From: Obrimoposthia wandeli
Taxonomy: Eukaryota
DNA: 64,000 nt
Direction: 5' to 3'
Assembly (NCBI GenBank): GCA_977020255.1
Contig: CDROCS010000004.1
Coordinates: forward strand, 62,001 to 126,000
The translations under genes were made by a program, and so were the position numbers. This document shows positions 3,330 through 35,300 of this stretch, piece after piece (the first letter of the stretch is position 1; each line of letters opens with the position of its first letter). Under the pieces are notes generated by a model that worked only from the letters and a program-made list of their open reading frames with translations, did no database searches and was not told the origin of the DNA.

Positions 3330-3884
3330 ATGTTAACAAATATTAATTATAAAGGAATTTGCTTAGATGATGTATCCAAATTAAAATTTCGAACACGACC
3401 AGAACAATACGTTTATAAAGCCAAAGATTATACAATACTTATTTTTAGAAATAAGAAATGCAGGATTATGGGATGTAAGGTACCTATTAAAAATATTTCT
3501 TACCCTTTAAGAATAAATATACTTGGTATTCAATCAATTACGATATGTGAAAATTTAGATCAAAGTATCAATCTATTTAAATTATGGAATGTATTACGTA
3601 ATGCATGTTCATTTGACCCTGAGGTTTTCCCAGGCTTAAGATTAAATATTTTCAATCCATTGTGTGTAAATATTTTCACATCTGGAAAGGTCGTAATTTT
3701 AGGTCTTAGAAATTTAGATTTTCAAAATCAAGTTAACGATATCATGACATACATTAAAAAAAATTATATAAATACGAAACAATTTCTAATTAATTATGGT
3801 GAAACAAAGATTTCGGATATTCAAGAAGATGGAAGAAGTCTCATCTGGAGGATTCATACAGCGACCGAATATTTTGATGTTTAA
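3330..3884 (+). CDS. TATA-binding-protein-like protein (element 1)
   Basis: FDPEVFPGL...VNIFTSGKVVILG matches the TBP repeat-2 signature YEPELFPGL...LLIFxSGKVVxTG. TILIFRNKKCRIMG matches repeat 1. Likely ATG at 3330. The C-terminal tail may be read-through caused by an 8-A run near 3756-3763. Confidence 0.85.
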   Translation: MLTNINYKGICLDDVSKLKFRTRPEQYVYKAKDYTILIFRNKKCRIMGCKVPIKNISYPLRINILGIQSITICENLDQSINLFKLWNVLRNACSFDPEVFPGLRLNIFNPLCVNIFTSGKVVILGLRNLDFQNQVNDIMTYIKKNYINTKQFLINYGETKISDIQEDGRSLIWRIHTATEYFDV

Positions 3885-9870: not shown

Positions 9871-10025
9871 CTAAATTTTCACATAGAATAGTATGTGTGT
9901 GATTACGTAATACATTCTTAACTGATAAGAGTGAACTTTAGTATAAATTTCACATAAAATATTGTGTGTATGATTACGTCATACATTCTTAACTGATAAG
10001 AGTGAACTTTATCCTAAATTTTCAT
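9871..10025. repeat. About 71-bp tandem duplication in the subterminal region of element 1
   Basis: GATTACGT(A/C)ATACATTCTTAACTGATAAGAGTGAACTTTA occurs at about 9901 and 9972. Confidence 0.9.
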
Positions 10026-10027
10026 TA

Positions 10028-10373
10028 TGGACTAGATCACAAAAAGAAGGGTGGAGACTAAGCCACTTGATCCTTTGAATTAGTAGTTAGCCAAAAAGAA
10101 GGGTGGAGACTAGACCACAAGAGAAGGGTGGAGACTAAGCCACTTGACCCTTTCATAGTGGTATATCATAAAAAGAAGGGTGGAGACTAAGCCACTTGAC
10201 CCTTTCATAGTGGTATATCACAAAAAAAAGAAGGGTGGAGACTAAGCCACTTGACCCTTTCATAGTGATATATCACAAAAAGAAGGGTGGAGACTAAGCC
10301 ACTTGACCCTTTGAATTATGGACGACCATAGATTATAGCCAAAAGAAGGGTGGAGTCTAGATCACTTGACCCC
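10028..10373 (+). repeat. Seven copies of an approximately 30-bp core (period about 50 bp) in the terminal region
   Basis: AGAAGGGTGGAGACTAAGCCACTTGACCC(T) starts near 10041, 10093 (truncated), 10121, 10170, 10225, 10277 and 10341. Confidence 0.92.
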
Positions 10374-10412
10374 CTCACCCTCTCCCTCCCCTCCCCCTCC
10401 CCGCCTCCTCCT

Positions 10413-10541
10413 CCCTAAAGGGTGTCACACCATAAGGATGTCTTGCCACACCATACGGGTATATGTTGCCTCACCGGAGGTGAGGCAACATATACCCGTA
10501 TGGTGTGGCAAGACATCCTTATGGTGTGACACCCTTTAGGG
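10413..10541. repeat. Perfect palindrome, 63-bp arms with 3-nt loop (GGA)
   Basis: 10413-10475 is the exact reverse complement of 10479-10541, checked base by base. Confidence 0.97.
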
Positions 10542-11307
10542 GGGGTCAAGTGGTCTAGACTCCATCCTTCTACCTACTTGTTTACGTGAAATAAATATAT
10601 TGGAAAATCTTCTTTGAATACCTTTAAATAAATTTTGAATAATATATTTTAAATTTGTATTTATTTGCAAAATTACCTCGTGTATTCTTTTTTCTAAAAT
10701 TTTTCCATCAACATAATCTGACATTAATTACAAAACATTCTCTATGATATTAACCCATTACTTCGGGGTTTAATTTTTTCAAAAGTTCTTCAAAATTTTG
10801 CATATTATAGCTATTTGTGGATACCCTTAAATATACTAAACACAAAATTATTATATTTACACTATTCAGCATAAAATTAATAATACTATATCGAAAGAGT
10901 AAATTGAAAATGAGTTCTTGAAAGCTACTGATGAATCGAGAGTTATTGTATCTCTAGCTTGTGAGTTCTTAAAGGTATTGGACTTGTGTGAATGTGACTG
11001 TATGCTGCTGCTATTTATATGTGGATCCGTTTTTATTGTTCTCTCTTTCTGCCACGTTGCATCAAGTTTCTCAACACTGTCACAGTAAAAATGGTGATGA
11101 CTTTTACAGTTATCAAGGTCACCTGATGTTAATTAACTCACTTATTGAAAAAATTAAACAACCTTTTTTCGTATTTATTATTTCCCCTAATTTAATTTCA
11201 ATTTATTGACAATTATACTATTTAAAATTAATTGAATTAGTTGTGGTACAACAAGTGTACAATAATCACATAAATTTATGTTACATTAAACCATCTTTAA
11301 TCTGCAG

Positions 11308-14300
11308 ACGTGCAAGTGGACACAAAAACTTACCCAGAGATCGAGGCGGCCATCGATCGGCAGATAGGGGAACATTCGCTCATCAACCACGATGCCTGGC
11401 GCAAGAAGTTGATTCAGTTGTATGAGACCCAGCGTGTCCGGCACGGTATGATGACGCTGGGTCCATCTGGAGCCGGCAAGACCAAGTGCATCAGCGTCTT
11501 GATGAAAGCCATGACGGACTGTGGCGAGCCGCACAAGGAGATGCGCATGAATCCCAAGGCCATCACTGCACCACAGATGTTCGGTCGACTGGACGTTGCC
11601 ACAAACGACTGGACTGACGGTAAGTGATGGCTATATCATCAAGATTGATTTATGAAACCTTTTACTACTCATTACAGTCAATACCACATTTTAGGTATTT
11701 TCTCGACACTGTGGCGACGTACCCACAAAGGGAAGAAGGGCGACCACATCTGGCTGGTGCTGGACGGTCCTGTGGATGCCATTTGGATTGAGAACCTCAA
11801 CTCTGTATTGGATGACAACAAAACACTGACTCTGGCCAATGGAGATCGAATCACGATGGCACCAAACACAAAGATCATATTCGAGGTGCATAACATTGAC
11901 AATGCCAGTCCAGCGACCGTCTCCCGAAACGGCATGGTCTACATGAGCAGCTCCATTCTTGACTGGCAACCGATATTGAAGAGCTGGCTACTCAAGTACA
12001 CCCAGGGTTCCGTGTCCAGCACCATCTTTGAAACCTTCAATCTGATATTCACCGATACCTATCGATATGTCACTCGCGACCTTTTCCCCAAGATAGAAAC
12101 CCTAGAATGCAACTACATCAGACAGGCCATTGATCTTCTAGAAGGATTGCTACAAGGTTAATGTTCTGTTCTGTTTACTGGACATTTTAGAAATTTAATA
12201 ATTTGTAGCATAAATTCCTAATACCTGAAATTAACATTTGTATTCTTCAGGCATGGATGAGAAGGACATCAAGACTAATCATCTGGAGAAGTTGATTGTA
12301 TTTTCGATCATGTGGTCAGTTGGTGCTCTTCTAGAACTGGAAGATCGTCTGAAGCTACAGGAGTTCTTGCAGCAAAAGAACTGCATACCGCTTCCGAAGC
12401 TGACAAACGACAACACAATATTCGAGTACGTTGTTAACAAAGAAGGCGAATGGGAACATTGGGACAACAGGATCTCTGAGTACAACTATCCGACAGATCA
12501 TATCCCCGAGTATATAAGCATCCTTGTCCCGAATGTCGACAACACGCGGACTGATTTCCTCATCGATACCATCTCAAAGCAAGGAAAAGCAGTACTGTTG
12601 ATCGGTGAACAGGCAAGTGCACACACCATCAAACATGGCAAAGCTCAGTGAACTCTATAAGAATTTCAATAATCTCCTTGTCATTGCAGGGCACAGCCAA
12701 GACAGTGATCGTGAAAGGCTACTGTGGCAAGTACAATCCCGAGGACCACATGTTCAAGTCGTTGAACTTTTCCAGTGCTACAACTCCCAACATGTTCCAG
12801 CGCACTGTGGAGAGCTACGTCGACAAGCGGATGGGCTCCACATTTGGTCCTCCGACTGGTAAGAAGATGACCATATTCCTGGACGACATCAATATGCCCG
12901 TCATCAACGAGTGGGGAGATCAGGTGAGCTACTTACAATCAAAAATAACAAATTTACATTCAAAATGAAATGTTATTGTTCTTATATTGTAAATTACGAT
13001 AATTATTCCTTTAATTGCATTCAGTCAGATTATATATTTGGGAGGATATGTTGACAGAGTTTTTGACTCACATGCAGATCACCAATGAAATCGTGCGTCA
13101 AATGATGGAAATGTCCGGCTTCTACAGTCTCGAGAAACCGGGTGACTTCACTAGCATCGTTGATATCCAGATCATGGGGGCCATGATCCACCCGGGCGGT
13201 GGGCGCAATGACATTCCACAGCGACTAAAGCGCCAGTTCAGCATCTTCAACTGCACTCTGCCCAGCAACACAAGCATTGACAGGATCTTCTCCATTCTGT
13301 GCATCGGATACTTCTGTCCTGAACGCGGTTTCAGTAAGGAGGTTCTGGCCACTGTCAAGATCCTGGTCGGTTGCACTCGCAAGCTCTGGCAGAAGACCAA
13401 GGTAGGTCTCTTCTTTTCTTGAATTGAAATATTGATTGATTGATTGATTGAAATATTGATTGTTTTATTGTTTTATTGAAATATTGATTGATTGATTGGT
13501 TGGTTGGTTGAGAGCGTGCTGTTTTTCTCAAAAAACGAATTTACCAATTTGAAAGTATTGTCATTTTTTAAAAGTTTCAAACTTTAAGTGCTTACCTAGT
13601 TATTAGTGTTTCCAATACCGGTATTTTTAAAACCTTGATCCCGATATTACCGGTGAAAATGCAATATACAAATACAGGTTTAGCAACACAAAATAAAACG
13701 TAATCTGGTACTGAATTTTACCGATATATGTTTTAAATTTTTGATATTTTTCTACATAACTTTCATAAAATTTTAAATATATATGTATCTTTTATGAGAA
13801 ACAACTGGACAATATCAATCTTAATGTGATGAATGCTTTGATAATTTTAATGTATTTAGCTCTCTAAAAACATTATTAAAAATATATATAAATCGAACTA
13901 TTAAATTTGTACATTGATATATTGTTTAATACCTATGTTTCTTAGTGTTGTATAAATTTATGTATTTAAATGTTTTATTTAATATTTATTGACATTTTTA
14001 AATTTGAGAATGAATCTTCTTAATGTTGTCACTTTCTCGTTAAGTAAAGTAAAGAAGTATAAACTCTAAAAAATGATATGGCATTACCTGTTGTTTTATA
14101 AATCTGTTAAAGTTTATCAATGTGAATAGTGACAAACAAGTATATGTCGCCACATACAGGTAAAAATGCTGCCCACACCGGCCAAGTTCCACTACGTGTT
14201 CAACTTGCGCGACCTCAGTCGCATCTGGCAGGGCATGCTTAACTGCACCAGTGACATCGTAAACACCCCTGGCAAGGCTATGTCGCTGTGGAAGCACGAG

Positions 14301-17300
14301 TGCATGCGCGTTATCACGGACCGATTCGTTGAACAGACAGACACCAACTGGTTCGACAAGATGCTCAAGGTCATAGGTAAGTCATCCGATTAGAAAATCG
14401 GACGGATTTTGAGCAGTTTCAGATAGATTAATTTAATTAATATGTGATAACTTTTACAACTAAACATATAATTATGACTTAAATTTGAATCAAATAATGA
14501 TTTATAAAACATTAATATTTAAATATTTTGATAAATTAATTTATTAATGAAATTACAATCAGATATAACGTGAAATATGATCAAAAGGAAATCAGAGGGC
14601 CAACAATTAAGAGAGCTTTAAACCATTTATGTGATTAGTTTAAACTTACCGACGATGATGATGTATATTACTGAGACTAAAACTACCCTGTTCTGGTCGG
14701 TGAGAGCCGGTCCAGGTAAGAGTGAGAATTTAGTCTAACTATATGTCTCGAAATTTTGATCTAGTTTAAGGGTTCTTATAGAGTACCCAAGTAATCATGG
14801 CGGTCTTTGAATTTTTTTGCAAAATTAAATTTTCAATAGCTATCATTATTAATGGATTACAAGAAACCCCTAGTATGTGTACGTGTATGTTAGTATTAGT
14901 ATAATTTCGTACGAATGCATGTGGAATTGCATGTGCTTCGGAAATTAATATTTTAAAATATTCTGGATCAATTTGTTGAAAGATCAGCAAGAAAAAGAAA
15001 ACAGGTTTAAGTAGCTATATATATATATATGTACAGTATCGGTATTTCAGTATTATTTTGTTTCATGCTAATTAAATTAATTATTTGTTACTACTTTAAT
15101 TACTTAATTTGTAATGTTAATGTAATAAATTGTACGAAATAAAAGCGTGCAATTCGCTGTGAAATGTCGAGGGGCCAAAAGAAACTCGAAGCTTAGGAGT
15201 CTTGTCATATGCTAGTGCTGCAATTTCGTACGCGTCTCAACCTACAAGTCAAGTTTTGGAACAAGTGATCAGGGAGACACTTTTTATTTGCCAACATGAA
15301 TTTTTGTGATACGAGAAATTTCCAGTAAAATGACGAATTGCGTGATCTGATCGAATTTAATTTTGTTGTCTTAACAAAATTGTATATTAGCAAAGCAAAT
15401 TTAGCAAACTGTTGGGCAAATCGTCACTACATTCAACCTGGTAGATATTTAGATATATAGTCATTTCGATTCAAGAATTAAATGACAAACGTCCAGAATA
15501 TGCCAGAGATGACAGAGTGATTGTTCATTGTAAATTGCCAAACATAACCAAGAAATATTGTATCTTCTTCGATAGGATGTGCTATTATCCAGATAATGTT
15601 CCCATTAATTCCTTTTTTCTATCAATGTACTCATTCGTTTCAGATCAACACTTCAATTTTTTATGATGGCTTTAAGGTTGAACAGCTTTAAAATAACGGC
15701 TTTTTGTATCTGAAAATCAATTAATTTTTTAAAAATGAGAAAATATCTGATCCAGAGATGAAAAATATTTGTTGAATAAAATTTTGTTGATTTATTTTAT
15801 TATTAATATTATAGTTTATTTTAAAACAGCAGAAACTTATTCTAGTATCAAAATTATTTCAATGATATTTTAAAAGTTCAAAAGTAGACTCAGGGATATT
15901 TCTAATTATTCTAATATAAAGAATTTAAACAGGAAAGTAAAATTGAATTAATTGAATATATTAAAGAATAAAAAATAAATAAACATATTTTTGAAAAACA
16001 GTGTTGACCATGTTAATTATATACCTTTTATAAATTAATTGATTACTTTATTTTATATTAGTTAATTTATCGACAGTTGATGACATTTTCAAAATTCATT
16101 GCAGGCGAAGAGGACTGTGGTGAGGCTGCAGTAGCTGAAATGGAGGAGGAGCCCTACTTCATAGATTTCTTGCGCGACGCTCCAGAGCCCACTGGAGAAG
16201 AGGCAGAAGATGCAGACATGGAGGCGCCTAAGATTTATGAGCCAATTGAGTCCTACGAGCAGTTGGCTGAGCGACTGATGGTGATGATGTCACTCTACAA
16301 CGAGTCCATTCGCGGTAGCAAGCTGGACTTGGTGTTCTTCAAGGACGCGATGACGCACTTGGTGAAGATAAGCCGCGTCATTCGGACAACGAAGGGTCAC
16401 TCTCTGCTGGTGGGCGTAGGCGGCTCCGGCAAGCAGTCACTCACACGCTTGGCTTCCTTCATTGCCGGCTACGAGACCTTCCAGATTGTGCTCACCAGGT
16501 AAGCTCACCGTAACAGTCACCGAGCTAAGAAGAGCTTCCTTGAAGAAGATGATTTATGTAGCAAGAGTAATTTTGATTTCATTAATTGTTTTGATGATGT
16601 TTCGATGGATTTTAGCTTTAAAATTGTTAACATTTAGCTTCCTATGCAAATTAGCAATCGAACTGTTAACTGAGGAAAATATCAAAAGTGTCTCAAGATT
16701 ATTCGGTTAAATAATTCACGTCATATTTTGAGCCCATATTCACATTTAATGACATTTTCAAAACTAAAATGCACTTAACCTCGGATTCAGTACACCATAA
16801 AATAGAAAACACCATAACAGGGCTACATAACAGTTACAATATAAAAATTAAAGTATTTGAAATTAAAACAAAATAACATTCATGATAAAAATATTTTTTA
16901 ATAAAATATAAATAAAAATGTATAATATCATTCGCACATATTTAGTTGTGACAAATACACAACTACAAGATTACATATCAATATCCAATCAAACTATTTA
17001 TCTTCCAATAATAAACGTTCTCAACCCAGTAATCAATCGAAAATTAAACACCTTTGACAAATGTCGAATGTATTTGTCATTCAAATCATATTTACCACTG
17101 CTCGCAACTACGTCATTCGTACATTTTAGTTATGGTAATGGTAAAGAGTGAGATTGGATATTGATATGTCATGGTGTAGCTGTGCGGTTTCCATAACTAA
17201 AAACGAATGAGTGATATTACAAATTTATATTTCTATTCTATTAAAAATATCGTATAATGCATGTGATTTGTGTCTTTTTTGTAAATTTATTGGGAGAGCA

Positions 17301-20300
17301 CGCTTTGAGATATTATTGTTCTTATTCGTAATACTTTCAAATTTATTTTGTAACAGTTAGGTATTCCTGTTTTTGCCAAACAAAGAGATGGTGTTTTCAA
17401 TTTTTCTCAAGTAAACTGAATATCGGGTATTTATTGTTTGGGTTTGAATGTGTAAATGAATTAAAAAATAAATGTTACTCCTTACAATCTTTATATTGTA
17501 TGGGAGGATATTTTTTATTTGAAAGTATTAGTTTGTTTTCCTTTGAAACTTTGTGTGGAACTTAAGATTATTCGAAATTAATTTAACACCGTTATTTATC
17601 ATTGCAGTAGCAGTGACGGGTAAAGGATTTTATTTCATCACCTGTTTCACAGTTCACATATTTTCATGATTTTTTATTAAAATTATCTACATAAAAATCT
17701 CTCTTCACAATCAAAATTTTGGTGAAAAATGTTTAACATATTAATATTATTGGGACGCTGTAAAAGGAAATTGCCGTTTGTATACATTACGCCGTCCACG
17801 GAGCCTAGAAAGAGAAGAAGGCGAAATATATATGTTATATAGTATTATCATTATTTAAATGTTAGTTGGTGGAAAAGTTTATTTATTAAGGGAGAGCACA
17901 GGCAGATTTAAAATGACATTTGTATTTCATTGACTTCCAATTAGTATTTTAAACTGGATTAATACACTTAGAAATTAATTATTGTTGTTAATTTTATCAT
18001 TAGTAAGTAGGTGGATGTGTCCGGTCTAATCCACACCCCCTCCACCCCCCTGTCCTTTAAAACCGAGCATGTGTGTGGAGTGAAATTTCGTGTAGGTGTG
18101 TGGAGTGAAATTTCGTATATGTGTGTCTCCATCCCGCCCAAAGGGGGAAGGAAGGGGGGGGGGGTACCCCCCACCATATTTGTTAAACTTTTACCATGAA
18201 TCTCAAAAGTGGTTAGAGAAGACCACGAGAATCCATATTGACCCCGGCGACTTTTCGCAGACGAGATTTCAAATATTACTACTATTTTTAAGAAAGATTT
18301 TAGATTAATAAATTACTACATGTTAAATATCTATGTCAGTTTTAGAATTTAGAGGAGAAAAATCGGTCAGATCTATATAATTTAGAGGAGCAAAAACAAA
18401 ATACGAGACAAAATTATTTTTCAAAATATTTATTAAACATAAAACAACATATTGGCTTCACTCAAAGTCCAGAGAGGCTGCATTTTCCCGTCATTAGCAA
18501 AATATCCATTCAGACGTATTGAGATATTCCATAGTTCTTCATCTAGAATTGGAGCAATCAAATATCCCAGATCATCTTTAAAATCCAGACTGGGATCAGT
18601 TTCAAGCTCGAAACAATTTCCTTCATATACATAATCAGAAATGTAAAAGCCCAAAATATTTTTCAGTTGATCAAAATCAGTTGTTGTTAAAATTTCGATG
18701 AGATATTTTTTCTCCACTTTTGATATTTTCACAGGATTCATAATTCGTATAATTTGATGCCTCTTTAATATATTACATAGTTTTCCTTTTGAAATTCTTT
18801 CTGGATAATAAAAATTTGCTACACATCTCATATCCATTCTAAAATAAGGAAACTGATTAAAAACAATGTTTATAAAAAAATACACATAAGATACAAATAA
18901 GATACAAATAAAACTGATTATTAAATGAAAGAAACATAGTAAAACCGATTACAATTTATTACACACAAAAGTTAAAACATAGAAATATGAGCACGTTCAA
19001 TTTTCCACATAGGCAACTTTGTCCCCATTTCATCTTTCTTGTAACCATAAAGTCGAATTGTTAGAGTCCATTGCTTCTTTTTCGGAAACGCATCAATATC
19101 AACATATCTTCCATAGTCATCTAGAAATGCTTCATCGGCTCCTCGGATATAAAATTCGTTCTTATTGAAAGTAAAATTTGGAACTGCCTTTTCTATTTTC
19201 TGTTTAAGATATTGAAAATCAGGTTTTTGAATACCTGATAGATAGTAGCTGAACTTTCTTCTTTCAATTGTCACAGGATTTACTAAAGCAATCAGTTTAG
19301 CCTTCTTCAAGAATCTGACTTTGTATTTGAAATATTGTTTCACTTCTTCATACATATCCTTATCCGATTCTTCAAACATTTCTTCGTCATCGCTTAATAC
19401 CCGTTGGCTATCGTCCATCGTTGATAATTGTCTTTGATATGAATGCATTTACTGTGATTTGTCCTCCAATGGCGCATTCTTTTATACTAATTTCTAACAA
19501 AGACAAGAATCTCATTGGTTAATATAACTAAAGCATTGAATTTGATTGGACTAAATCTATATTAAAAATCAAAATTTATTGGAAGAAATATATCATCCAA
19601 TTATAATAGGTTTGCAAGATAATTACAAGAAACGTGCAATAAAAAGCAGGTTCAGACATATATAAAGAAGATTTTACAGAATACAATTTCAGTCTAATGA
19701 AACTCGTAAATATAAATTATAAAGGTAGAACAGAAGATGATGTTTCGTACTTACCATTCAATGAATGGAAGCCGAGACAATATGTAGAAAAGTTTGACAA
19801 TTTCACAGTTGTTATGTTTCCTACAGGTTAGTTTTTTATTTTATTTTCATATTGAATTCTTTAGGAAATTGTCGTGTTATGGGATGCAAAATACCAATGC
19901 TTGGGTTCAATTTACCATTTGGAATTCAAATCACTGCAATACAATCAATCACGATTTCGGCTAATCTCGGGAAACAGATAAATATTTTTAAAACTGCAGA
20001 GAAAATGAAAGAAGAATGCATGTTTGAACCAGAAATTTTTCCTGCTCTCAGTTATTTGAAGTTTAAACCGCTATGTGTAAATATATTTTCCAGTGGTAAA
20101 GTTATGATATTGGGATTGAAAAATTTTGATTATCCAGACATAGTTGATTTGATTTTAGAAAATATATCTTATTACATCTTGTTATCTTTTCTATAAACAA
20201 ACCCGTTTAAACTTATTGTTTTGAATGAATAATACTATAAATAGAGACAATGAAGTGGATCGGCTTGCCGATGAAATTTTTTCTGGAAAAATTAGGGTTA

Positions 20301-23300
20301 AAGAAATTTTATCAGAATTAAAAAATAATGATATAACAAGAGATAACATTGAAATATTGGTTAGATCTCACGTTATTCGAGAATTTAGAAATCGTACACA
20401 AATAAATAAAATTATAGCCAAATATTCATTAATTAATTTTTGTATTTCATCTACAATAGCTCTAACATTGTACATTTCAATAAGGAAACTTCTATGATAA
20501 TATAAACAATATTAAAAATGAAAGAGTATATGCAATGGAGCTAAATAATAATGCTGTATTTCAAATAGTTGGCCCAAGTGGAAGTGGAAAGACACATTTC
20601 GTCTGTAAATTGTTGCAAAATGAATCTCTTTTCAAATCTAGTTTCAAAAATATTTATTGGCATCATGGTGGAGGAGGGGAAAGCGGGTTAACCAAAACAG
20701 AAGTTTGCAAGTTGAAGGGTATAAAATTTATTGAAGGATTTGATGCAAATTGGTGTGAAAGATTGAAAAAAGAAGATGTAATAATAATTGATGATTTGTA
20801 TGAGGAGGCTAACAAGGAATCGGACTTTAATAATTTATTTACAAAGATTGCAAGACATCGTGAAGTAACAGTTATATTTATCACTCAAAATCTGTTTCAC
20901 CAAGGAGGTCACCATAGAACAAGAAATCTTAATGTACATTACTTAGTTTTATTTAAAAATCCTAGATATCAAACAGTTGTTGATTTTGTGGCCAGACAGG
21001 CATTTTAGAATGTAGGAATGTTAGTTTAAATAATCAATTATTACCAGCAATGTTTAGGGACAACTTACTAGATACCCATAAATATCCCGCTAACCATCCT
21101 CTACACTCTATGAGTTTAAAGGACATTATCGGGAAATTTAAGGATGAAAGCGAGGGACAGGTTTCGTATGATGATTGTATTTTCCTACGCCCTAAATGCT
21201 ACAGTTTACAATGTAAACTTTACATGCATCTAATAATACATGTTCAATGAGAGCAAAGGGTGTGGGAAGAAACAATCTTACACATGAGGCCTACCGGAAA
21301 GTTTATGATACTGGGTGTATTGAAAACGTTGAGCAAAGTAGATTTATTTCAAGAGCCCATCAACTGTATTCCCATAAATCAACCAAAATCGCTTTGAGTA
21401 GTAATGACGACAAGCGCTTTTGGGTAGAAAAGAACGCTAGCCTGGCTTATGGACACTTCAGAATTTAAACGGTTTTCATTTTTTGATTTTTTTAGTTTAG
21501 TTTTTTAAAATTTTAGATCCCTATGGCACCTAGACTCTAACTTATTTGTTATTTCAATACGTTTTTTTAGGATGGACCTTATCTTTGCTGACATATCTCA
21601 TTGTGATGTTGTGATTAATAAATGTATTAAAAACAATTGTCTTATGTCTTTTATTATTTTACCCTTATATTTTTAGAGATTTAAAAAATAATTCAAAATA
21701 AAACATTTAAATTTTTTATTTTTATAACACACTAATTGTTTTGCAACGATAACCATTAAATACATAAATGTCCACAGTTTCTCGTCGCAGGATCCTGATA
21801 TTGTATCTTGTTGTAAAATACTCTTCTTCGTCCTTTTTGAATAGTTGAAACAAGTTTGTGTGGATAATACATTGCAAGTGGATCAAATACATGTATTGTT
21901 CACTCTCTAACATAAATAGCTATCCAATGTTCTCCTGGTAAATTCGAAGTATGAGTATTGATAATGTAACCTCCAGATTGAAAAAATGGAATCATATCAA
22001 TAGGATAAACTCCATTGAATTTATCACCCAGGACCTTCTCTGCTGATTCTTTTACTTGTTTTGAACTAAATAAAAATTAATAAATATAAATTTAAAATAT
22101 GTCTTACTCCATTCTATAATATGACAGTTCTGTTTTTATTGATTTGTATTTCCGAATCAAATACTCCGTAAATAAGCACCGTAGTAGGATGTGTTAAAGC
22201 TGCATTGAACTTAATTTCTAGTCGTAAATTTTCATCCTTTGGTAGTTGGCATTGGTTTATATCAAAGTCTGGTGCCAAAACGAATGTGAAGAACGGGCAG
22301 CTACTTTTAAACTCAGTGAAAGAAATACCATTGTTTATATTTTTATCTAGTTGACCCAAATTTCCGAATAATAGATTGGGTATAAGCCAAAGCATAAGCG
22401 TTACCTTCGAAATCTGTTTTATATGTTTCACGATAATCAGTATTTCTTGAAAGTGTCACTGAACCTACACTAAGATTGTCAAATTGAGTTGCATCTGTCG
22501 TATAATTTCCTAGAAACTTTGCAGTTTTTTGAAAAGAAATTAAAATGAATTTCGGTAATCTTACATCACCAAAAATTTGATCCTTATTAAAAGCTTGTGT
22601 ACTCGTACCTAAAGAATAAGATATAAGTTTAGTTTCTCTAATAGGATAACAAGCATTGTTTTTTTCCATTCCTATATTATGTGCCATTAAAACTGATTGC
22701 TCGGTTATAACTCTTCGAACATACAATTTTGCATTCAAAATATCAAGTCTAGGTTTTAGAATGTTCGTGCTTATCAAAGAAAAATTCCATTTATTACGTT
22801 TCAAACGAAAATGTACATTAACACCGGGAATTAAATATTTCGGTTGTTCAAAGAAATTCAATCTCAAAGACCCACACATTTCGTAAGCTTTAGAACCTGC
22901 AATCCATTCTTTGCGAGTTGCAACAGTTTTACCATAACCAATGGTTGCCAAATTAGTATTTTGAGTATCAGTACTATAATTCAAAAGACTTTCAATCAAA
23001 GCTTTATGAGCATAGAAAGAATTTCCACCTTCAATTTTGACATTATTAAGAGTAACAATTTCATCATTAAATAAAGAATTAAAGAGATAATTTACAGGTG
23101 TTACATCTGCATTTTCATCTAAATTAGTACCATCCCGATTTAATACTTTTATTTGAACATAAAGCAAAGTATCATTCAAATCTAAATACTCGCTATTGGA
23201 ACCATTAATATTAAATTCTAAATCGGTTAAAGTGGTTCCTGAAACTGAGTTAACTAGGAATATTTCTTCAAAGGAAGCATTATCTACAACTACTTGTGGA

Positions 23301-26300
23301 AGCGGTTTATCAAAAATACATAATTCAGTTTTGGCGCAACTCATTTTGCAAATATTGTTCCTTCAACATTCTTACGTTTGTTTATATTAATTTTTAGCTT
23401 CTTTTTACTTTTAAATCCACTACCTCCTTGGCTTTTATTTGATTTACGTTTTCTAATCAAATTAGCAACTTCAGGTAAAACATTATCAAGTTCATCAAGC
23501 GCATGCTTCTTAAAAGTTGGTATTAGTTTGTTGTCCTTAGATGAAAGGTAATCCTTTCCTAATTTTGATATAAATCGCCCGAGTCTCTTTAAAAGAGGAA
23601 AGGCAAATCTACCTAATGTTCTAAGCCAGCCAGATCCGTATTGTTTACCAACAAAATATGGTAATTTTCCACCTTGTTGGCTTTGACTATAAGCTTCAAT
23701 TATTGCTGGATTCGCCATTTTGTTTTCTTAAATGTATTGTTAAACTTGTCTTGGCCACGTACGTGAAATCTATTAGTTGTCCAGAATCATCTCTAATATA
23801 TACTTCAATATTGTTTATAGAAAAGAGAGAAACTGGAAGATACATTGGTTGATCTATACACATACCGACAGCGTCCCCATCTCTAGTTTCATTTTTAGAA
23901 ATCCATATTGTTCTCAAAAGTGGAACTCGCTGTCCTCCTACAAGCGTTGGTTCTATTCTGCTCCAATTCTGATCAAAGTTTTTAATAAATGGAGTAGAGC
24001 TAATTTTCGAAATTCGAACATATTCGTTTTTCTTATATTTTGCTTTTTTTAATTTAATCTTTTTTATTCCTGTTCATCCAAATGTCCATAGAGTTTTTAT
24101 TAGTAACATCAACAGGTCTCATTCCCTTGAGACCTCTATGTTCAGAGTGATTATATGCATGTATTATTTTAGGTAAAACTTGGATCCATTTTTTATTTCC
24201 TTCTTTTGTGAAATACTTTTTTATTCGATCTCTTAGAGTACGATTAAATCTTTCTACTACTGCTGCTTTGTATTGTGAAAACACAGAGTAGTGATTTATA
24301 TTATTTTGTTTAAATAATGATTGAACTTGCTTATTATAAAATTATTTTCCTAAATCAGTTTGCACTTTTTGTGGAATGTCCTCTTTTAATATTTCTTTAA
24401 TGGCTTCAAGCATAGCTATTGAAGACTTTGCTTTAACTGGAATTGCACGAGTAAACCTGCTAAATACATCAATACATTTTAAAATATATCGATATCCCTT
24501 ATTAATGGAAGAATATGGGATCATCTCCATCGAATCCATTTGCCATAAATTATTAGGACCGCTGGTTTTGTAAGCTCTAGTTGGAAACCTTCTTCTCATC
24601 GGCTTGTTCAGACTGTAGGCTAACTGGTCGCTCAGCCATTTCTGCGTTTTCTTGTAATTTTGTTTTGTTCTTTTTGCTAATTTTGAAACTCCTGTGTAGC
24701 CAATTGGATCTTTTGGATTGAACCATATCTTCTCCATTACAACAATTTGAATAGAAAGAAAATTTAAGTTTAGGCAAAGAAGGGCTAGCACCCATATCTT
24801 TAGCTGATTTTAGAAATAATAGTTTATGAACGTGTCGCAGCTATAATACTACTGATAATTGAAGCAACAACTGGAATAACAGCCCCTATGAAACCACCAT
24901 TCTGTTTAAGAATAATATTTCGTTTCCTTTTTTTACTTTTTACATTAGCAATATCTAGAAGAGTTTTTCTATATTTCTTTAATATATTTTTCCGATTTCC
25001 AACTTTTACTCGACCCAAAACTATATTATACAAAACTTCCAATAAATCATCTACAACAAAGGATGGAAATGCTTTAAGAATAATCATTCTCTTATTAGAA
25101 GAAGCTTTGACTAAAGTTTTAAAATAGGGTATGCTTCTTTGTATTTTCTTCATTTTAATAAAAAAGGTTTAATTTAAATATTGTTTATATTCGAAGCCAT
25201 TAAAGTTTTTTTTTATTTTTAACTACAGATTTGATTAATTTTTTCACTTCTTTTTTCTTAATGATTCTTTTTTTTGATTTCTTAGATTTTACTTTACGTT
25301 TTACTATCAACTTTGTAAAAGGCATTGGGAATTTATTTTTTATAATTGTTCTCTATTTCTTTATAAACAGTTACTCCCTTAGAATTAAATATGTCTGTTA
25401 AAACACGTAAATCATCTGGGCAAGCTTGTGTAAAGTCAATAAATATATACCCATGTGCTTGTTTAGCAGCATCATGGAATGAATCAACTAGAAAGTTCTT
25501 ATTTTGAGGAAATGCCTGTCTGGCCACAAAATCAACAACTGTTTGATCTCTAGGATTTTTAAATAAAACTAAGTAATGTACATTAAGATTTCTTGTTTAA
25601 TACATTTATTAATCACAACATCACAATGAGATATGTCAGCAAAGATAAGGTCCATCCTAAAAAAACGTATTGAAATAACAAATAAGTTAGAGTCTAGGTG
25701 CCATAGGGATCTAAAATTTTAAAAAACTAAACTAAAAAAATCAAAAAATGAAAACCGTTTAAATTCTGAAGTGTCCATAAGCCAGGCTAGCGTTCTTTTC
25801 TACCCAAAAGCGCTTGTCGTCATTACTACTCAAAGCGATTTTGGTTGATTTATGGGAATACAGTTGATGGGCTCTTGAAATAAATCTACTTTGCTCAACG
25901 TTTTCAATACACCCAGTATCATAAACTTTCCGGTAGGCCTCATGTGTAAGATTGTTTCTTCCCACACCCTTTGCTCTCATTGAACATGTATTATTAGATG
26001 CATGTAAAGTTTACATTGTAAACTGTAGCATTTAGGGCGTAGGAAAATACAATCATCATACGAAACCTGTCCCTCGCTTTCATCCTTAAATTTCCCGATA
26101 ATGTCCTTTAAACTCATAGAGTGTAGAGGATGGTTAGCGGGATATTTATGGGTATCTAGTAAGTTGTCCCTAAACATTGCTGGTAATAATTGATTATTTA
26201 AACTAACATTCCTACATTCTAAAATGCCTGTCTGGCCACAAAATCAACAACTGTTTGATATCTAGGATTTTTAAATAAAACTAAGTAATGTACATTAAGA

Positions 26301-29300
26301 TTTCTTGTTCTATGGTGACCTCCTTGGTGAAACAGATTTTGAGTGATAAATATAACTGTTACTTCACGATGTCTTGCAATCTTTGTAAATAAATTATTAA
26401 AGTCCGATTCCTTGTTAGCCTCCTCATACAAATCATCAATTATTATTACATCTTCTTTTTTTCAATCTTTCACACCAATTTGCATCAAATCCTTCAATAA
26501 ATTTTATACCCTTCAACTTGCAAACTTCTGTTTTGGTTAACCCGCTTTCCCTCCTCCACCATGATGCCAATAAATATTTTTGAAACTAGATTTGAAAAGA
26601 GATTCATTTTGCAACAATTTACAGACGAAATGTGTCTTTCCACTTCCACTTGGGCCAACTATTTGAAATACAGCATTATTATTTAGCTCCATTGCATATA
26701 CTCTTTCATTTTTAATATTGTTTATATTATCATAGAAGTTTCCTTATTGAAATGTACAATGTTAGAGCTATTGTAGATGAAATACAAAAATTAATTAATG
26801 AATATTTGGCTATAATTTTATTTATTTGTGTACGATTTCTAAATTCTCGAATAACGTGAGATCTAACAAATATTTCAATGTTATCTCTTGTTATATCATT
26901 ATTTTTTAATTCTGATAAAATTTCTTTAACCCTAATTTTTCCAGAAAAAATTTCATCGGCAAGCCGATCCACTTCATTGTCTCTATTTATAGTATTATTC
27001 ATTCAAAACAATAAGTTTAAACGGGTTTGTTTATAGAAAAGATAACAAGATGTAATAAGATATATTTTCTAAAATCAAATCAACTATGTCTGGATAATCA
27101 AAATTTTTCAATCCCAATATCATAACTTTACCACTGGAAAATATATTTACACATAGCGGTTTAAACTTCAAATAACTGAGAGCAGGAAAAATTTCTGGTT
27201 CAAACATGCATTCTTCTTTCATTTTCTCTGCAGTTTTAAAAATATTTATCTGTTTCCCGAGATTAGCCGAAATCGTGATTGATTGTATTGCAGTGATTTG
27301 AATTCCAAATGGTAAATTGAACCCAAGCATTGGTATTTTGCATCCCATAACACGACAATTTCCTAAAGAATTCAATATAAAAATAAAATAAAAAACTAAC
27401 CTGTAGGAAAAATAACAACTGTGAAATTGTCAAACTTTTCTACATATTGTCTCGGCTTCCATTCATTGAATGGTAAGTACGAAACATCATCTTCTGTTCT
27501 ACCTTTATAATTTATATTTACGAGTTTCATTAGACTGAAATTGTATTCTGTAAAATCTTCTTTATATATGTCTGAACCTGCTTTTTTATTGCACGTTTCT
27601 TGTAATTATCTTGCAAACCTATTATAATTGGATGATATATTTCTTCCAATAAATTTTGATTTTTAATATAGATTTAGTCCAATCAAATTCAATGCTTTAG
27701 TTATATTAACCAATGAGATTCTTGTCTTTGTTAGAAATTAGTATAAAAGAATGCGCCATTGGAGGACAAATCACAGTAAATGCATTCATATCAAAGACAA
27801 TTATCAACGATGGACGATAGCCAACGGGTATTAAGCGATGACGAAGAAATGTTTGAAGAATCGGATAAGGATATGTATGAAGAAGTGAAACAATATTTCA
27901 AATACAAAGTCAGATTCTTGAAGAAGGCTCAACTGATTGCTTTAGTAAATCCTGTGACAATTGAAAGAAGAAAGTTCAGCTACTATCTATCAGGTATTCA
28001 AAAACCTGATTTTCAATATCTTAAACAGAAAATAGAAAAGGCAGTTCCAAATTTTACTTTCAATAAGAACGAATTTTATATCCGAGGAGCCGATGAAGCA
28101 TTTCTAGATGACTATGGAAGATATGTTGATATTGATGCGTTTCCGAAAAAGAAGCAATGGACTCTAACAATTCGACTTTATGGTTACAAGAAAGATGAAA
28201 TGGGGACAAAGTTGCCTATGTGGAAAATTGAACGTGCTCATATTTCTATGTTTTAACTTTTGTGTGTAATAAATTGTAATCGGTTTTACTATGTTTCTTT
28301 CATTTAATAATCAGTTTTATTTGTATCTTATTTGTATCTTATGTGTATTTTTTTATAAACATTGTTTTTAATCAGTTTCCTTATTTTAGAATGGATATGA
28401 GATGTGTAGCAAATTTTTATTATCCAAAAAGAATTTCAAAAAGAAAACTATGTAATATATTAATGAGGCATCAAATTATACGAATTATGAATCCTGTGAA
28501 AATATCAAAAGTGGAGAAAAAATATCTCATCGAAATTTTAACAACAACTGATTTTGATCAACTGAAAAATATTTTGGGCTTTTACATTCCTGATTATGTA
28601 TATGAAGGAAATTGTTTCGAGCTTGAAACTGATCCCAGTCTGGATTTTAAAGATGATCTAGGATATTTGATTGCTCCAATTCTAGATGAAGAACTATGGA
28701 ATATCTCAATACGTCTGAATGGATATTTTGCTGATGACGGGAAAATGCAGCCTCTCTGGACTTTGAGTGAAGCCAATATGTTGTTTTATGTTTAATAAAT
28801 ATTTTGAAAAATAATTTTGTCTCGTATTTTGTTTTTGCTCCTCTAAATTATATAGATCTGACCGATTTTTCTCCTCTAAATTCTAAAACTGACATAGATA
28901 TTTAACATGTAGTAATTTATTAATCTAAAATCTTTCTTAAAAATAGTAGTAATATTTGAAATCTCGTCTGCGAAAAGCCGCCGGGGTCAATATGGATTCT
29001 CGTGGTCTTCTCTAACCACTTTTGAGATTCATGGTAAAAGTTTAACAAATATGGTGGTGGGTAACCCCCTTCCTTCCCCCTTTGGGCGGGATGGAGACAC
29101 ACATACACAAAATTTCACTCCACACACCTACACGAAATTTCACTCCACACACATGCTCGGTTTTAAAGGACAGGGGGAGGGGGGTGTGGATTAGACCGGA
29201 CACATCCACCTACTTTAGTATATTTAAAAAATAATTAACACCGATTATATGATAGTAACTGACCTCTTAGGCGGGGTGCAACGATTTAATTTAAAAAAAA

Positions 29301-32300
29301 CAATACTTGTGTAGGCTACTGGCTGATATTTGAGATTCCCTGAGTAATTTGTAACGGCTAATACATAGAAGCTGCTGGTAACAAGATTGATTGGGTTTAG
29401 TAAATAAAGGTTCACCCTCATGGGATACGTTATCTCTGTTAATTATAGTTTTTTATCTACTTTACCTTAAAAATTATTATATTTGAAAAATTTAAGGGAC
29501 TTGTAGAAAATATTTCCATTCAGCATCTTTCATAATATTATAGAAAAACGTTTTAAACAATTAATTCACAAATTTTATTAAAAAATAAAGCTTATAACCT
29601 TATGGATGGATATCAATTATGTGTAACAGTAGCAAAATAAAGTATAACATAGAAAAAGATATTTTTTGAATGTTTCCAATTGATTTGTCATTTGATAATA
29701 ACATTTAATCACATTTGAGTAATATACTGCATGGTGTTGAAGGTCGTATTTACTTTATATACGTTACACGTTTCTGTTTTAACGTGTAACATTTGATCCG
29801 TATATTTTTGTCTGAACTCTAGCCGAAATTTTGTCGTTTTACTTGTTTATTATTATTATTAAATCAGAATTTAGGAAATTCAACTCTTAATTTGTTCGAC
29901 TTTAACAATTCAAATCAATATTGTTTCATTTTCTTTGATTATCGTGATATAGAATGAGAGGCTGAAATGTTTTAACAAGCACTAAAATGCTTTATGTTGT
30001 GTGCATATGTGTATGAAGTATGCGTATGTAGTTGGTCAATTGGACATTGTTTTGTGTGTGTTGTCAGTATGTCAGACATGTTATTAAATTTCCGTTTTGC
30101 AGTTAATTGACGAAATAGAGAAGATATGATGCAATTAGTTTTGTCATATTTGTGTTGTAAATAAAATTTTAAAAATGTCTATATTATTACAGTTTTATGA
30201 GTGTTTTCATTGAGGCTGTTTTATGATCTTCCATTGATTGTTTTTATTTAAGATATTCGTAACATATTCTAATGTTGATTTGCTTGTTTCCATTTTGTAT
30301 AGTCCAAATGGGTACGTGCACATGACTATTTTCACAGTTTGAAATTTTTGAACGTCACAATTTGGTATGATAAAATAATTTAAAATAAACCCACATTCAA
30401 TTACATAAATCAAACTGTATTTCGTGAATTGTTAGGAATAGAGGTTCTAACAGATATTTTGAATCACCTCTATATATATTGAAATGATTCACGTATTTTG
30501 AGAGTGAATTTTCACGATCTATTGTTTTTCTTATCGAAAGACTTTTTTGAACATAATTCCAAGGTTTTATTATAGGTTATCCTAATTTTTTGATATATGG
30601 TCAAGAATGTACCGCAAATTTTTCTACTTATTTGGATGACCAAAGACGTGTACCCCTGCAAAAGTGACATTGACGAACAAGATATACTTATCATATATAG
30701 CAGAGGTATTCAAAACATGGTACAACAAAAGCTTTTTACAGAACGTATCAACCCAGTCTACTGCACATATCTCCCTACCCAAGAATGTGAATTGTTAATT
30801 GATTTGCGGAATAGATTCCAGTCACAGTTTTCTCGTTTAGTTTAGGTTTATTTTGTTTATTATCTGCAAGTCACGCTATTTGAAGTTATTCGATTTAGCA
30901 ATGAGATGCATACTTCCTCTTGTTTATGTGAAACTAGCTTTTCCCACTACAATACAATGAAGAGCAAACTAATTAGCCGATTGAAAGCGAAACCCTGCAG
31001 CTCTGCTATAAACATAATAAAACTCAGCAAACATAATAAAAATTTGTGCTCCTCACTAATATGGGTACCAGTTATTTGTTATTTATTCTGTGTGCATATT
31101 TAGTAAATATTAAATATATTACATTTGCATGTTTGATTTGCCTTATCCTTATATTTTTTTAGCATGGATACTAGTTGGGAATTAAATAGACGATGTGAAT
31201 GTTAGGGAATTGGTATACCGTAATGGCATTGGGCCCCTCCTGGGCGTCATGGCTTTAAAATCAATAGGGACGAGTTCCACCACCGACCTTTGAGTGGAAT
31301 TTTGGGGAGGATTTGTCAGTACAAGTGAAATTAGGATCACAGTTCAAACTGACACCCAAATTATATACAAATCTTTTGCCTTACAGTTATGTTAAACAAA
31401 TATGGTGTTAAATATTTTCATTTTTTAACATATATATTCTAACTGTTTGACACACACGCGGGGTCATATTATCTAGTCCGATGTGGTTCCCCCGTCCATG
31501 ACGTTTTCCAACTATTATAAAAATGCTTATAAGCTATCACAACATGGGATCTTTTTATAGTTAAATCTGCATATTGGAAAACATAAATATCTTAGTAACC
31601 TGATGACGTTTTAGCTATTGTAAATTTTCCAAAATAAATTCTAAATAAACCTAGTATGAGTCAGAGAGCGCACATATTAGAGTGTCTGTACGCTTACGAC
31701 TGTATAAGTTACAGATATTGATTCAACAAAAAATCAAGATATGTTTTCATGGTGTACCAAGCCCTACACTCTTGAATTATTCGTTTAGGCACAGTCTGAC
31801 TGTTAGTTGACTTTACTGGCAACAAAGATAACAACATCGAGTGTGAAGTCGAACTAAAAAGTCAAGGATCACGTAGGTGCAGTGACAACTTCAGACGAAG
31901 AAGTAGATAATGCAAACAAAGATATTGATGAAGATATACCATTTCAATTTTACTTTAGTGAATAAGTTGGTTCCGCAGTCGTTGCGAGATGTGGTACTGA
32001 ATAATGGCAATCTGTCGAAGAGACGAGTCGTGGTCAATGTGATATACATGCTTATACACTGCTGAACTCGTTTCCTGTTATTCCTGAAGAGATCATAAAC
32101 GTTTCCCTGATGAACACTAACATTAGTGAGCGATTCTTTTATGAAATAACACCAATCTGAACGAGATCATATATATTTGAACTGGCGAGAACGTTTCTAT
32201 ATGTTTACTTTTTTATAAATACATTCATACAATGCCTCAAGGCGCAACTTATTCTCCCAGAAAACATTATTAGGCATGTGATTCCAATTGAGAAACACTT

Positions 32301-35300
32301 TGGGCAGTTGAAAGCTACATTGAGGTTTCACGACTCGTTATGGCACGACCGTACATTCATATGAACATTTTCTATTGACGAGATCCTCGTCGAGTTTCAT
32401 GAAGGGTTATCTTCAGGCAGTGCATCCCAACTAAACCAAGTAAGAATCAATGTGTAACTGGGTAATGTAAGCAGAGACTGAAACCTCTCTAACATGTATC
32501 ATATGAAACAGAAAAGACGCCCTCGAAGAAGCAGAAAATACGAAACACGCAATCACGTTCCTGGTTTTTGGAAGGAGAACGCAACATTACGACTGACAAT
32601 TGATTCAGCACTGATTGGAAGAGTGAAAGCGAGTGCCATGAGCCTCCCAGCGGTTGCCAAATCAATTGACGGACGTCAACGTTGAAACACAAAATATTTG
32701 TAATACAGCAAAGCAACTCTCTTTTCCTTCTGAGACAAAGTCAACATGCTGGTGAATGAGATTTTCACGGTGCACAGTGCACTTAGATTAGGGGAAAAGT
32801 GATATAATTGAGTTCTATAATCAGACAAAGTCTGGAGCCGACACAATAGATAAAATAGTTCAGAGCGCAAGTACAGTCGTTTGCGGACTGATTAACTGCA
32901 GTGTTTATTTCTGCTATCATTTATGGGATCAACGACAAACTATGAGGGGAAATATTGGCTATGAACCTTTTCTTTCAATAGTTTGTCTTGATTTTCCCGG
33001 GCAACAGTTGCTACAATCTTCTGTACGTGCTCTTAAAAAATCAAGAGGCTATTTATGACTAAGGGTTTCTAACTGAATGTCCCGCATGAAATGCCAACGC
33101 TGCAGTTAACTTGTTTATTTGAATTATAATGTAACTATGTTCTCCTCTCACCAGTGGTACAATATAATTCTTGTAACTAAAAACTAGTAACTGAATATGT
33201 ATTAAATTTTTATTACACTTTTGGTGCTAATATTCCGGGTGATACATATTTTCTACTTTCTACCATCATTTGTAACATAACGATGTCTCTGATGGTACTA
33301 AAAGTCGGTTAAACTAGTGTAAATTTGTGATGGGAGCTAATTAAGGGTCAATTTGAACTATACTAAAATTCATAGAGATATGTAGGCTTAAGACGACAAA
33401 AATTCCCTCTAGTCTGTAATTTCCGATTGAGATGGCTTCATTTTAAGTTGGAAAAACTGAAAGCGGCTCTAATACATCCTAAACTTTGACGCTATCCGAT
33501 CATCAAGGATATTAAAATCCAAGAATGCTCATGGGAACTGTAATTTAAATCGCTTATTATTGTAATGAACTGAGAAATAATCTTACCTTCGTTGCAGGTC
33601 GTACAACGTGTCGAATCTGATGGAAGACCTGAAGTCACTATACCGCCACTCTGGTCAGCAAGGCAAAGGCATCACGTTCCTGTTCACCGACAACGAGATC
33701 AAGGACGAGAGTTTCCTGGAGTTCCTCAACAACATGCTCAGCTCTGGCGAGATTGCCAACTTGTTCGCTCGTGATGAGATGGACGAGATCCTCCAAGAGC
33801 TGGTTGGTGTCATGAAGAAGGAGCATCCGCGCCGACCACCCACAAATGAGAACCTCCAGGTAGGTCGTACGTTATTCTTATAAACACTAAATATGTCTAG
33901 CAGTATTTGCGATATATCTTGTAATCAGTGAATAGGTCAAAAAACTATATAAAGGCTGTTTCAAAATAACTGTTACAACTTCATTTCCTAGTAATTCTCG
34001 AAAAACAGTTTGTGTGCAATTTATTTTTCAAATTTTATATATTAAATAAATCAATTTTTGGATAGATTGAACTTTGTCATATAGTGATACACGATATTCT
34101 ACTTTCAGGAGTACTACATGAGCCGCGTGTTGCGCTATCTACATGTAGTCATGTGTTTCTCTCCCGTGGGTGAGAAGTTCCGCAGCCGATCGCTGCGTTT
34201 CCCGGGTCTAATCAGTGGCTGTACAATCGATTGGTTCCAGCGTTGGCCACGGGATGCCCTCATTGCCGTTTCCGATTACTTCATTTCCTCATTCGAAATT
34301 GTCTGCTCACCTGAAGTCAAGAAGGCTGTAGTCAATACTATGGGCACTTTCCAGGCATGTGTTTGCTATTGAGCCTTACATCCTACTAGAGAGATGTCAT
34401 GGGGGCAATTCTATCTAAATTTTTTTTAATTTCAAAAGTTAATCTCTCCTAACCGTGAAATATTTTTACAAAATATAGTAAATCTTTATTCAATTTATGC
34501 TATATTTAAATTTCAAATTATAAAAATATAATCATGAAACTTTACATGTAAAAATGTAGATGAGAGATCTTTGTGGCGCACTATAGTTTGTGTGTAGGGC
34601 TTCAATTGAACTTCACATATAATTTGTGGCCTTGCGTGAAAACATTAAACAAGAAGGCTAATCGCCAGATTGGTCAAACATCAGTTCTGATAAAATACGG
34701 ATTAACCTATGAAAACGTCAATTTTTTTAATTGAGTTTTTCATATGATTATTTTTATTATTTTAGTTTTCACCTTAAACTTATTTTCAAACAAATTAATT
34801 TTGCATTTTATTATTAAGAGTGGATAATAAATTAAAATTGCATCAAACAGGTCTTGGATGGAAATACGTAACGTAAACATATAAATTGGTGATGAAAAAT
34901 AAAGAGCAAGTCCTGGCGGAAGATCATTATGAATAAGAGTTTATTTGATGGATAATAATAATATTGTTATGTGTGATAATGATGTTGTAAAATATGCAAT
35001 TCGACATTTTGTGTCAGTTGTTTTAATACTGAGTTGTGTTCTGTATGTGTAAATAATAGAAGCTTTAGTTGTTTTCCTCATAACAAATGCAAGAAATAGC
35101 ATGCTAATAATCGAGGACGGAGATTTTCTAAAAATGAATAAAGATTCATTGATTGTGTTCGTCAACATCAAATATTCAAGAACCTAACGCTATTGAACCG
35201 CATATGCGATGCGGATTATGAATAAAATAATTTAATTCATATTATACCTTAATAAAATGAAAATTTGTATTGTACAAAATCAAAGATTTCATAATGTACA

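Follow-up and report, generated by a model that had tools for sequence, protein, structure and literature searches.

Mavericks are usually described as intronless except for captured cargo. Barreat & Katzourakis 2021 (PMC8097293) report having seen no introns in the genes of intact vertebrate Mavericks/Polintons, and in nematode Mavericks the core genes are intronless, with introns borne by the cargo (Widen et al., bioRxiv 10.1101/2022.07.12.499685). Introners were found in dinoflagellate maverick-polinton-like elements (PMC11957031, PMC12166617), and group I introns in some PLVs (PMC12220804). Introns, RNA-validated and with a mean of 176 bp, are carried by 61 genes of Punuivirus, an endogenous giant virus of an alga (10.64898/2026.10.09.758095). 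For viruses from non-animal datasets, one figure legend names a TBP-like gene (PMC8502044). Searches of the accessible literature yielded no report of the intron described below or of an animal Polinton TBP family, and PMC10748475, PMC6431247, PMC12166617 and 10.64898/2026.10.13.758929 gave nothing further.

Here we analyse a stretch of 64,000 nt (the window, meaning the whole of the DNA studied) with two elements of this type, one of which, element 2, has a predicted 38-nt spliceosomal microintron in a TBP-like gene. The element-2 lineage shares with vertebrate Mavericks protein-primed PolB (pPolB), a retroviral-type integrase, an A32-like ATPase, terminal inverted repeats and a 6-bp target-site duplication (TSD), but has in addition a conserved TBP-like gene with its predicted microintron, whereas a mention of TBP was not found in the accessible part of PMC8097293. 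Nematode Mavericks likewise have introns inside the element and in non-core genes; there, however, the introns belong to host cargo genes of recent capture, whereas the element-2 gene is long-resident (about 22% identical to cellular TBP), mostly intronless in its family, and interrupted at a position unseen in the cellular TBPs checked. The dinoflagellate introners are also intron-type inserts in integrated Polinton-like elements. In contrast to them, the inserts of element 2 and of its relative L020 have no common interior, and near-identical copies at unrelated sites are absent from the window and from loci L006-L034 beyond the duplicate in the second arm of element 2, other matches being short, weak and T-rich; the insert is old and position-conserved, not part of a young repeat family. 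Punuivirus, too, is an integrated dsDNA virus with spliceosomal introns of host type in its regulatory-phase genes, and its late genes have a promoter motif of their own, but it is a giant virus of a green alga, whereas element 2 is a Polinton of intermediate size in which a single intron, of 38 nt, is predicted. Finally, flatworm microintrons (PMC6530080) resemble this one in length (near their 37-bp peak), gene-5' position and canonical ends, but the element-2 intron lies in a virus-like element, and the 27 modelled introns of its host species are at least 50 nt long. A position-conserved microintron in a resident gene would mean that some Maverick lineages depend on the host spliceosome, and ORF-based screens would score such intron-bearing genes as broken.

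The two elements and the host gene

The features on the window are the following.

18006..29214, no strand: element 2, a rearranged, internally deleted Polinton/Maverick with AGTAGG...CCTACT ends, 3.6-kb inverted arms, and pieces of ATPase, pPolB, integrase and capsid-position genes
18000..18005, forward strand: TSD TTAGTA, 6 bp, left copy (right copy at 29215-29220)
19697..19826, forward strand: exon 1 of the compact TBP-like gene, 43 codons plus 1 nt, matching first-lobe strands of the TBP fold (alignment, model)
19827..19864, forward strand: predicted spliceosomal microintron of the left arm, 38 nt, GT-AG, phase 1, 63% T (sequence, variants, alignments)
19865..20196, forward strand: exon 2 of the TBP-like gene (Pfam TBP, E 1.8e-11)
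27363..27400, reverse strand: mirror insert in the right arm, with 1 difference
27031..27530, reverse strand: mirror copy of the entire TBP-like gene, right arm
3330..3884, forward strand: uninterrupted TBP-like ORF of element 1 (Pfam TBP, E 7.3e-12; model pLDDT 93, TBP fold)
11309..60687, forward strand: host axonemal dynein heavy chain, DNAH5/8-like, 28 exons modelled, with element 2 inside its intron 16499-33597

Element 2 is an 11.2-kb palindromic derivative with the terminal features of a Polinton, and since the 6-bp TSD around it is exact, it seems to have inserted already rearranged. This copy is defective, so that its intron informs on the family and not on the activity of the copy itself. 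The initial annotation had reported the intron in both arms; the mirror insert is indeed present, but between the arms 17 of 3,618 aligned bases are different, which marks a recent duplication, and the two occurrences therefore amount to one observation and not to a second line of evidence.

Element 1, located upstream of element 2, carries by Pfam pPolB (PF03175, E 5.9e-15), integrase (PF00665), the A32-like packaging ATPase (PF04665, detected in element 2 as well) and the uninterrupted TBP-like ORF. Element 2 has a short piece of pPolB, assigned by eye, and a deleted integrase copy, 67% identical; a full integrase copy is present in L020. The capsid-position ORFs (406 aa and 158 aa) have no Pfam match and were assigned by size, order and conservation in L016 and L020. 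A fragment past the capsid-position gene may resemble an adenovirus-type protease.

Some further features of the two elements were observed. Tandem repeats of 71 nt and 52-55 nt occur at the right end of element 1 (9874-10570), where a near-perfect hairpin of 66 bp (10410-10544) lies just inside the terminal motif. At 4615-5028 of element 1, a small lysine-rich ORF and a pX-like ORF appear fused; they are separate in element 2 (24824-25345, reverse strand), L009, L012 and L020. Two unannotated, distantly related ORFs (18433-18837 and 18972-19448, reverse strand) lie next to the TBP-like gene of element 2, and their homologs flank the gene in relatives among L007-L010, L012 and L015, in the last of these twice. 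A 150-aa ORF without a Pfam match is immediately upstream of the TBP-like gene in many relatives (L013-L024) and at the far end in element 1 (9313-9765), so gene order is variable within the group.

The host dynein model joins its 28 exons into 2,416 aa without a stop, the window having the 3' part of the gene only. Its 27 introns are 50-17,099 nt long (the first modelled one, assigned by hand, is 75 nt, and element 2 occupies the largest), with 25 GT and 2 GC donors (the latter at 12613 and 34355) and 23 CAG and 4 TAG acceptors. The protein joins three schistosome proteins with support 100 in a FastTree tree of 23 rows, and its closest full-length match is from a schistosome (74.6%); thus the host is probably a flatworm. 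A dataset that contains the sequence bears the label marine metagenome, and the flatworm is likely a marine one. Both statements that had been made about host splicing agree with this model: the donor GTTAGT is used at 52633, in one of the 27 introns, and the shortest intron among these is 50 nt. The caveat attached to the latter, that the insert is smaller than any host intron, is eased by what is known of flatworms. Liver-fluke introns peak at 37 and 90 bp, and microintrons that favour gene 5' ends occur in other flatworms including a free-living one, with splicing by intron definition suggested (PMC6530080); cestode TBP2 introns of 29-45 bp have been tabulated (PMC13134418). For this host the caveat still stands, all 27 introns having at least 50 nt.

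The insert at 19827-19864

The TBP-like gene of element 2 is interrupted in phase 1, 130 nt from its ATG, by 38 nt of the form ACAG/GTTAGT...TTCTTTAG/GA (slashes mark the insert ends), with GT at 19827 and AG ending at 19864. This is the sequence that the initial annotation described, and, as stated there, the frame of exon 1 (ATG 19697) when read without splicing runs into TAG, one codon into the insert. The same annotation had found that the spliced product aligns without a gap to the intronless gene of element 1, and this extends to the family. With an X set at the break, the element-2 and L020 products align gaplessly from -5 to +8 with 15 uninterrupted homologs, and X stands opposite Gly in 30/30 alignments; the ORF of element 1 (3330-3884) runs without interruption, with Lys in this column. 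The column is Gly in 100 of the 114 relatives with a readable motif (170 examined). The insert ends coincide with the break in homology, and coding residues are neither gained nor lost in any of the 30 alignments.

A metagenome scan over 21 of 64 parts gave 436 relatives, of which the best 80 were retained. Among these, 20 of the 21 family loci L006-L026 read through the insert site. L020, the sole outside intron-bearing locus found among the loci scanned, has a 40-nt insert, ACAG/GTATAA...GTCTTAG/GG, at the identical nucleotide position and in phase 1; the initial annotation had proposed to look for the intron in further family copies, and one of these has a predicted intron at the same site. 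The L020 and element-2 proteins are 50% identical over 146 columns, and the flanks of the inserts keep 18/30 and 23/30 bases, whereas the insert interiors match no better than chance, 1,227 of 2,000 shuffles reaching their score. Ends and position kept, interior free and length differing modulo 3 are the pattern of a spliced intron, which would be hard to explain by two accidents. Moreover, as the insert lengths are unequal modulo 3 (38 vs 40, plus variants of 1-5 nt), splicing fits and a fixed frameshift does not.

Both inserts have the splice signals of a U2-type intron: a 5' GT (donors GTTAGT in element 2 and GTATAA in L020) and a TAG acceptor behind a pyrimidine tract (10 and 12 of the 15 upstream bases, respectively). 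A branch-like YTNAY match places an A at -16 in element 2 and at -15 in L020, but such matches are several per intron, absent from many host introns and frequent in T-rich DNA. Since AGG is repeated at both insert ends, the insert has four equivalent placements, and the chance of GT...AG ends is below 1% per insert; in element 2 as a whole, 23 of 10,762 38-nt windows begin with GT and finish with AG (0.2%). Rfam gave no match over 17900-29300, and the insert is 38 nt, so that it has no group I/II catalytic RNA fold.

Several other candidates were set aside. L024, which like L020 matches a degenerate intron-plus-flank pattern applied to loci L001-L085, reads through without stops, and the split gene of L034 has a frameshift at a different place. 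Among viral contigs, a scan with alignment A1 gave five loci, all with giant-virus or cellular-type TBPs, and the degenerate pattern gave 14 loci with no convincing TBP-like gene (one match, E 0.006). The protein nearest to exon 1 (P0173, 58.5%) is uninterrupted, but it does not group with element 2 in trees.

In organism A the element-2 family reaches a very high copy number: in runs of a single sample, the contigs aligned over 171 bases at the site number 5,086 (X1), 10,354 (X2) and 8,045 (X4), and X5 covers part of the gene only. An insert-free joint is present in none of the five joints listed, in contigs that drop rare variants. Eight of the 12 indel rows listed fall inside the insert, which makes up 22% of the stretch (binomial p 0.001, with rows that are non-independent), and the summed indel depth share inside versus outside it is 27% vs 0.15% in X1 and 22% vs 4.9% in X2; the insert has three T runs, so the excess is partly slippage. 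No variant of the donor GT is found among those listed in thousands of contigs; the A and G of the acceptor are variable (0.2% and 2.5% of X1 depth, about 7% in X2 and X4). Exonic substitutions that exceed 10% of X1 depth number 14 (among the 40 variants listed of 669); seven of them are synonymous and none makes a stop. In addition, exon 1 and the donor are present, with 2 differences, in a metagenome from a separate study.

From these sequence comparisons we consider it highly probable that the 38-nt insert is a real U2-type spliceosomal microintron, with splicing predicted. The spliceosomal reading proposed in the initial annotation thereby gains support from the L020 insert, from the tolerance of indels among genomic copies and from a host that groups with flatworms.

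Three readings in which the present host splices the insert poorly or never were weighed. The intron might be real but date from a former host whose introns were smaller, while the host of today splices it inefficiently if at all and carries the family passively. The 50-nt minimum of the 27 host introns and the mostly CAG host acceptors (23/27, vs TAG in the insert) would fit, as would the metagenomic origin of L020 and the transfer of Mavericks between hosts (bioRxiv 2022.07.12.499685). We nevertheless find it very unlikely, because the host probably belongs to a phylum with microintrons, free-living species included, these are 5'-biased and the window has the dynein 3' part only, and the donor GT shows no variant among those listed in host copies. 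Less probable again is a dead frame-breaking insertion in a master copy, amplified non-autonomously, with GT...AG ends by chance and no splicing. The rearranged and deleted state of element 2, the very high copy number in organism A and a length below that of any host intron seen (27, minimum 50 nt) are what one would expect from it. However, it has to face an L020 insert at the same nucleotide with the same ends, similar length and unrelated interior in a protein of 50% identity, the less than 1% chance of GT...AG ends for each insert, and common variants in both exons that are synonymous or conservative. Hardly any credence is left for translation of exon 2 alone from ATG 19879 (105 aa) or for a recoded stop: in element 2 as well as in L020 there is an in-frame ATG after the acceptor, and at least 14 database proteins begin at the corresponding Met, but this Met is an invariant internal residue, four of ten such proteins checked have a full-length cluster-mate (152-164 aa), so that at least those four are truncated calls, the short form would, by the model, be without half of the first TBP lobe, and variable insert length rules out a single recoding rule. 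Because of the same cluster-mates, Met-start database proteins were rejected as a tally of introns.

Origin of the predicted intron

Taking the insert as a spliceosomal intron, gain inside the Polinton lineage is likely, rather than inheritance from a cellular TBP: with 20 of the 21 loci uninterrupted and cellular TBP introns elsewhere, gain within the element is simpler. In scanned loci the cellular TBP introns lie downstream of the element position, by 5 nt in L047 and by 8 nt in L077, whose acceptor is shared by L082, and four cestode TBP intron positions also differ from it (PMC13134418). Of the two events that the initial annotation had allowed within a virus-like element, gain or loss, it is thus gain that these data favour. 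Both inserts lie in AG/G, and CAG/G is present at the site in 2 of 21 uninterrupted genes; the intron may have arisen by insertion at an AG/G proto-splice site and would have been maintained by selection while the family was active.

In the trees L020 groups with L012 (99/85), or with L009 and L012, both intronless (98/91), and a sister grouping of element 2 and L020 appears in 0/200 bootstrap trees. AU tests do not reject a single clade of the two intron-bearing genes (p 0.34, 0.28). The ATPase tree places element 2, L009, L012 and L020 close, the branching among them being not settled. The similarity of the DNA flanks of element 2 and L020 is unremarkable (rank 21 of 78 pairs), which argues against a conversion patch. 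Both a single gain, possibly with one or two local losses or with recombination between elements, and two parallel gains are possible, and intron-bearing and intronless relatives at one site make a small natural test of intron gain (single, parallel or by recombination).

The intron could also be ancestral in the subgroup, or have arrived with a captured cellular TBP, and then have been repeatedly lost from the uninterrupted relatives. That the best trees place intronless genes between the two intron-bearing ones, and that two of the four genes close by ATPase bear the intron, speaks for this course. We hold it possible but rather doubtful, as a deep origin would need many losses (20/21 loci uninterrupted) and no cellular TBP intron checked sits at the same codon. 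In addition, DNA elements possess no reverse transcription of their own for exact intron removal.

The TBP-like protein and a candidate promoter motif

In relatives, the neighbours of the TBP-like gene are ATPase, integrase and capsid-position genes, which shows that the gene is resident in this Polinton group. Close homologs of the element-1 protein number 17, and a profile search finds 56 representatives at E <= 1e-30 and also matches PDB TBPs. The top Foldseek matches of its model (pLDDT 93) are TBPs over the whole length (TM 0.70-0.77, E about 1e-9, ~22% identity), consistent with a two-lobed TBP saddle. In the predicted fold the insert site is the turn after the third strand, and exon 1, which holds three strands of the saddle, would therefore belong to the TBP fold. 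The modelled fold suggests that the protein may bind TATA-type DNA. The Gly-Asn pair that follows the insert site was considered as a marker of intron-bearing genes and rejected, as six uninterrupted proteins carry the same pair. In the relative P0114, known from protein alone, about 12 residues are missing and the gap ends exactly at the intron column.

TATAWAWR is present at 8 of 18 TBP-like starts, those of elements 1 and 2 included and that of L020 not. Another motif, TATAAACA, was chosen by eye. Of 27 other ORF starts, among them those of ATPase and capsid-position genes, 14 have it at a distance of 33-53 nt upstream, whereas it precedes none of the 18 TBP-like starts.

20501..20508, forward strand: TATAAACA example, 34 nt upstream of the ATPase start
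3913, 4578, 7224, 7633, 9269, 20192, 20501 (forward strand) and 25189, 23386, 18874 (reverse strand): TATAAACA sites in the window, with further sites in L009, L012 and L020

The motif is enriched in element 1 (9 sites vs 1.9 expected) and element 2 (8 vs 0.9), with 0/200 shuffles reaching these counts, and in L012, L020 and L009 (0, 1 and 1 of 200 shuffles); in host DNA it is weakly enriched (8 vs 4.2 expected; 10/200 shuffles). There are hints in these distributions that TATAAACA is a candidate late promoter and the TBP-like protein a viral late-gene factor; the motif could also be simply a host-TBP box.

Under the microintron reading, the TBP-like gene would be transcribed in the nucleus by host Pol II from the TATA box that precedes its ATG by about 40 nt, and the host spliceosome would remove the 38-nt insert by intron definition, giving a TBP-like protein of 153 residues. 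By analogy with the herpesvirus TBP mimics, we tentatively suggest, while thinking the proposal more apt to fail than to hold, a widespread animal Polinton clade with two-tier transcription: an early, host-type TBP-like gene (with a TATA box and, in some lineages, a microintron gained at one proto-splice site, possibly twice) whose viral TBP would read TATAAACA at packaging and capsid genes. The analogy with the beta- and gammaherpesvirus mimics (ORF24/UL87/BcRF1) consists in a viral TBP-fold protein and a non-canonical TATA-type motif upstream of structural genes. In contrast, the herpesvirus mimics are large proteins of a six-member complex that bind TATT, whereas the element protein has about 150 aa and would stand alone, the likeness being one of predicted fold. 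If the two-tier proposal is true, the late switch would depend, through the intron, on a host that can splice about 38 nt. A TBP-fold protein together with a candidate target motif makes the timing of Polinton capsid genes testable. Finally, between the TBP-like gene and the ATPase of L020 there is an ORF (1710-2171) in which a C-terminal RING-type Cys/His pattern was recognized by eye.
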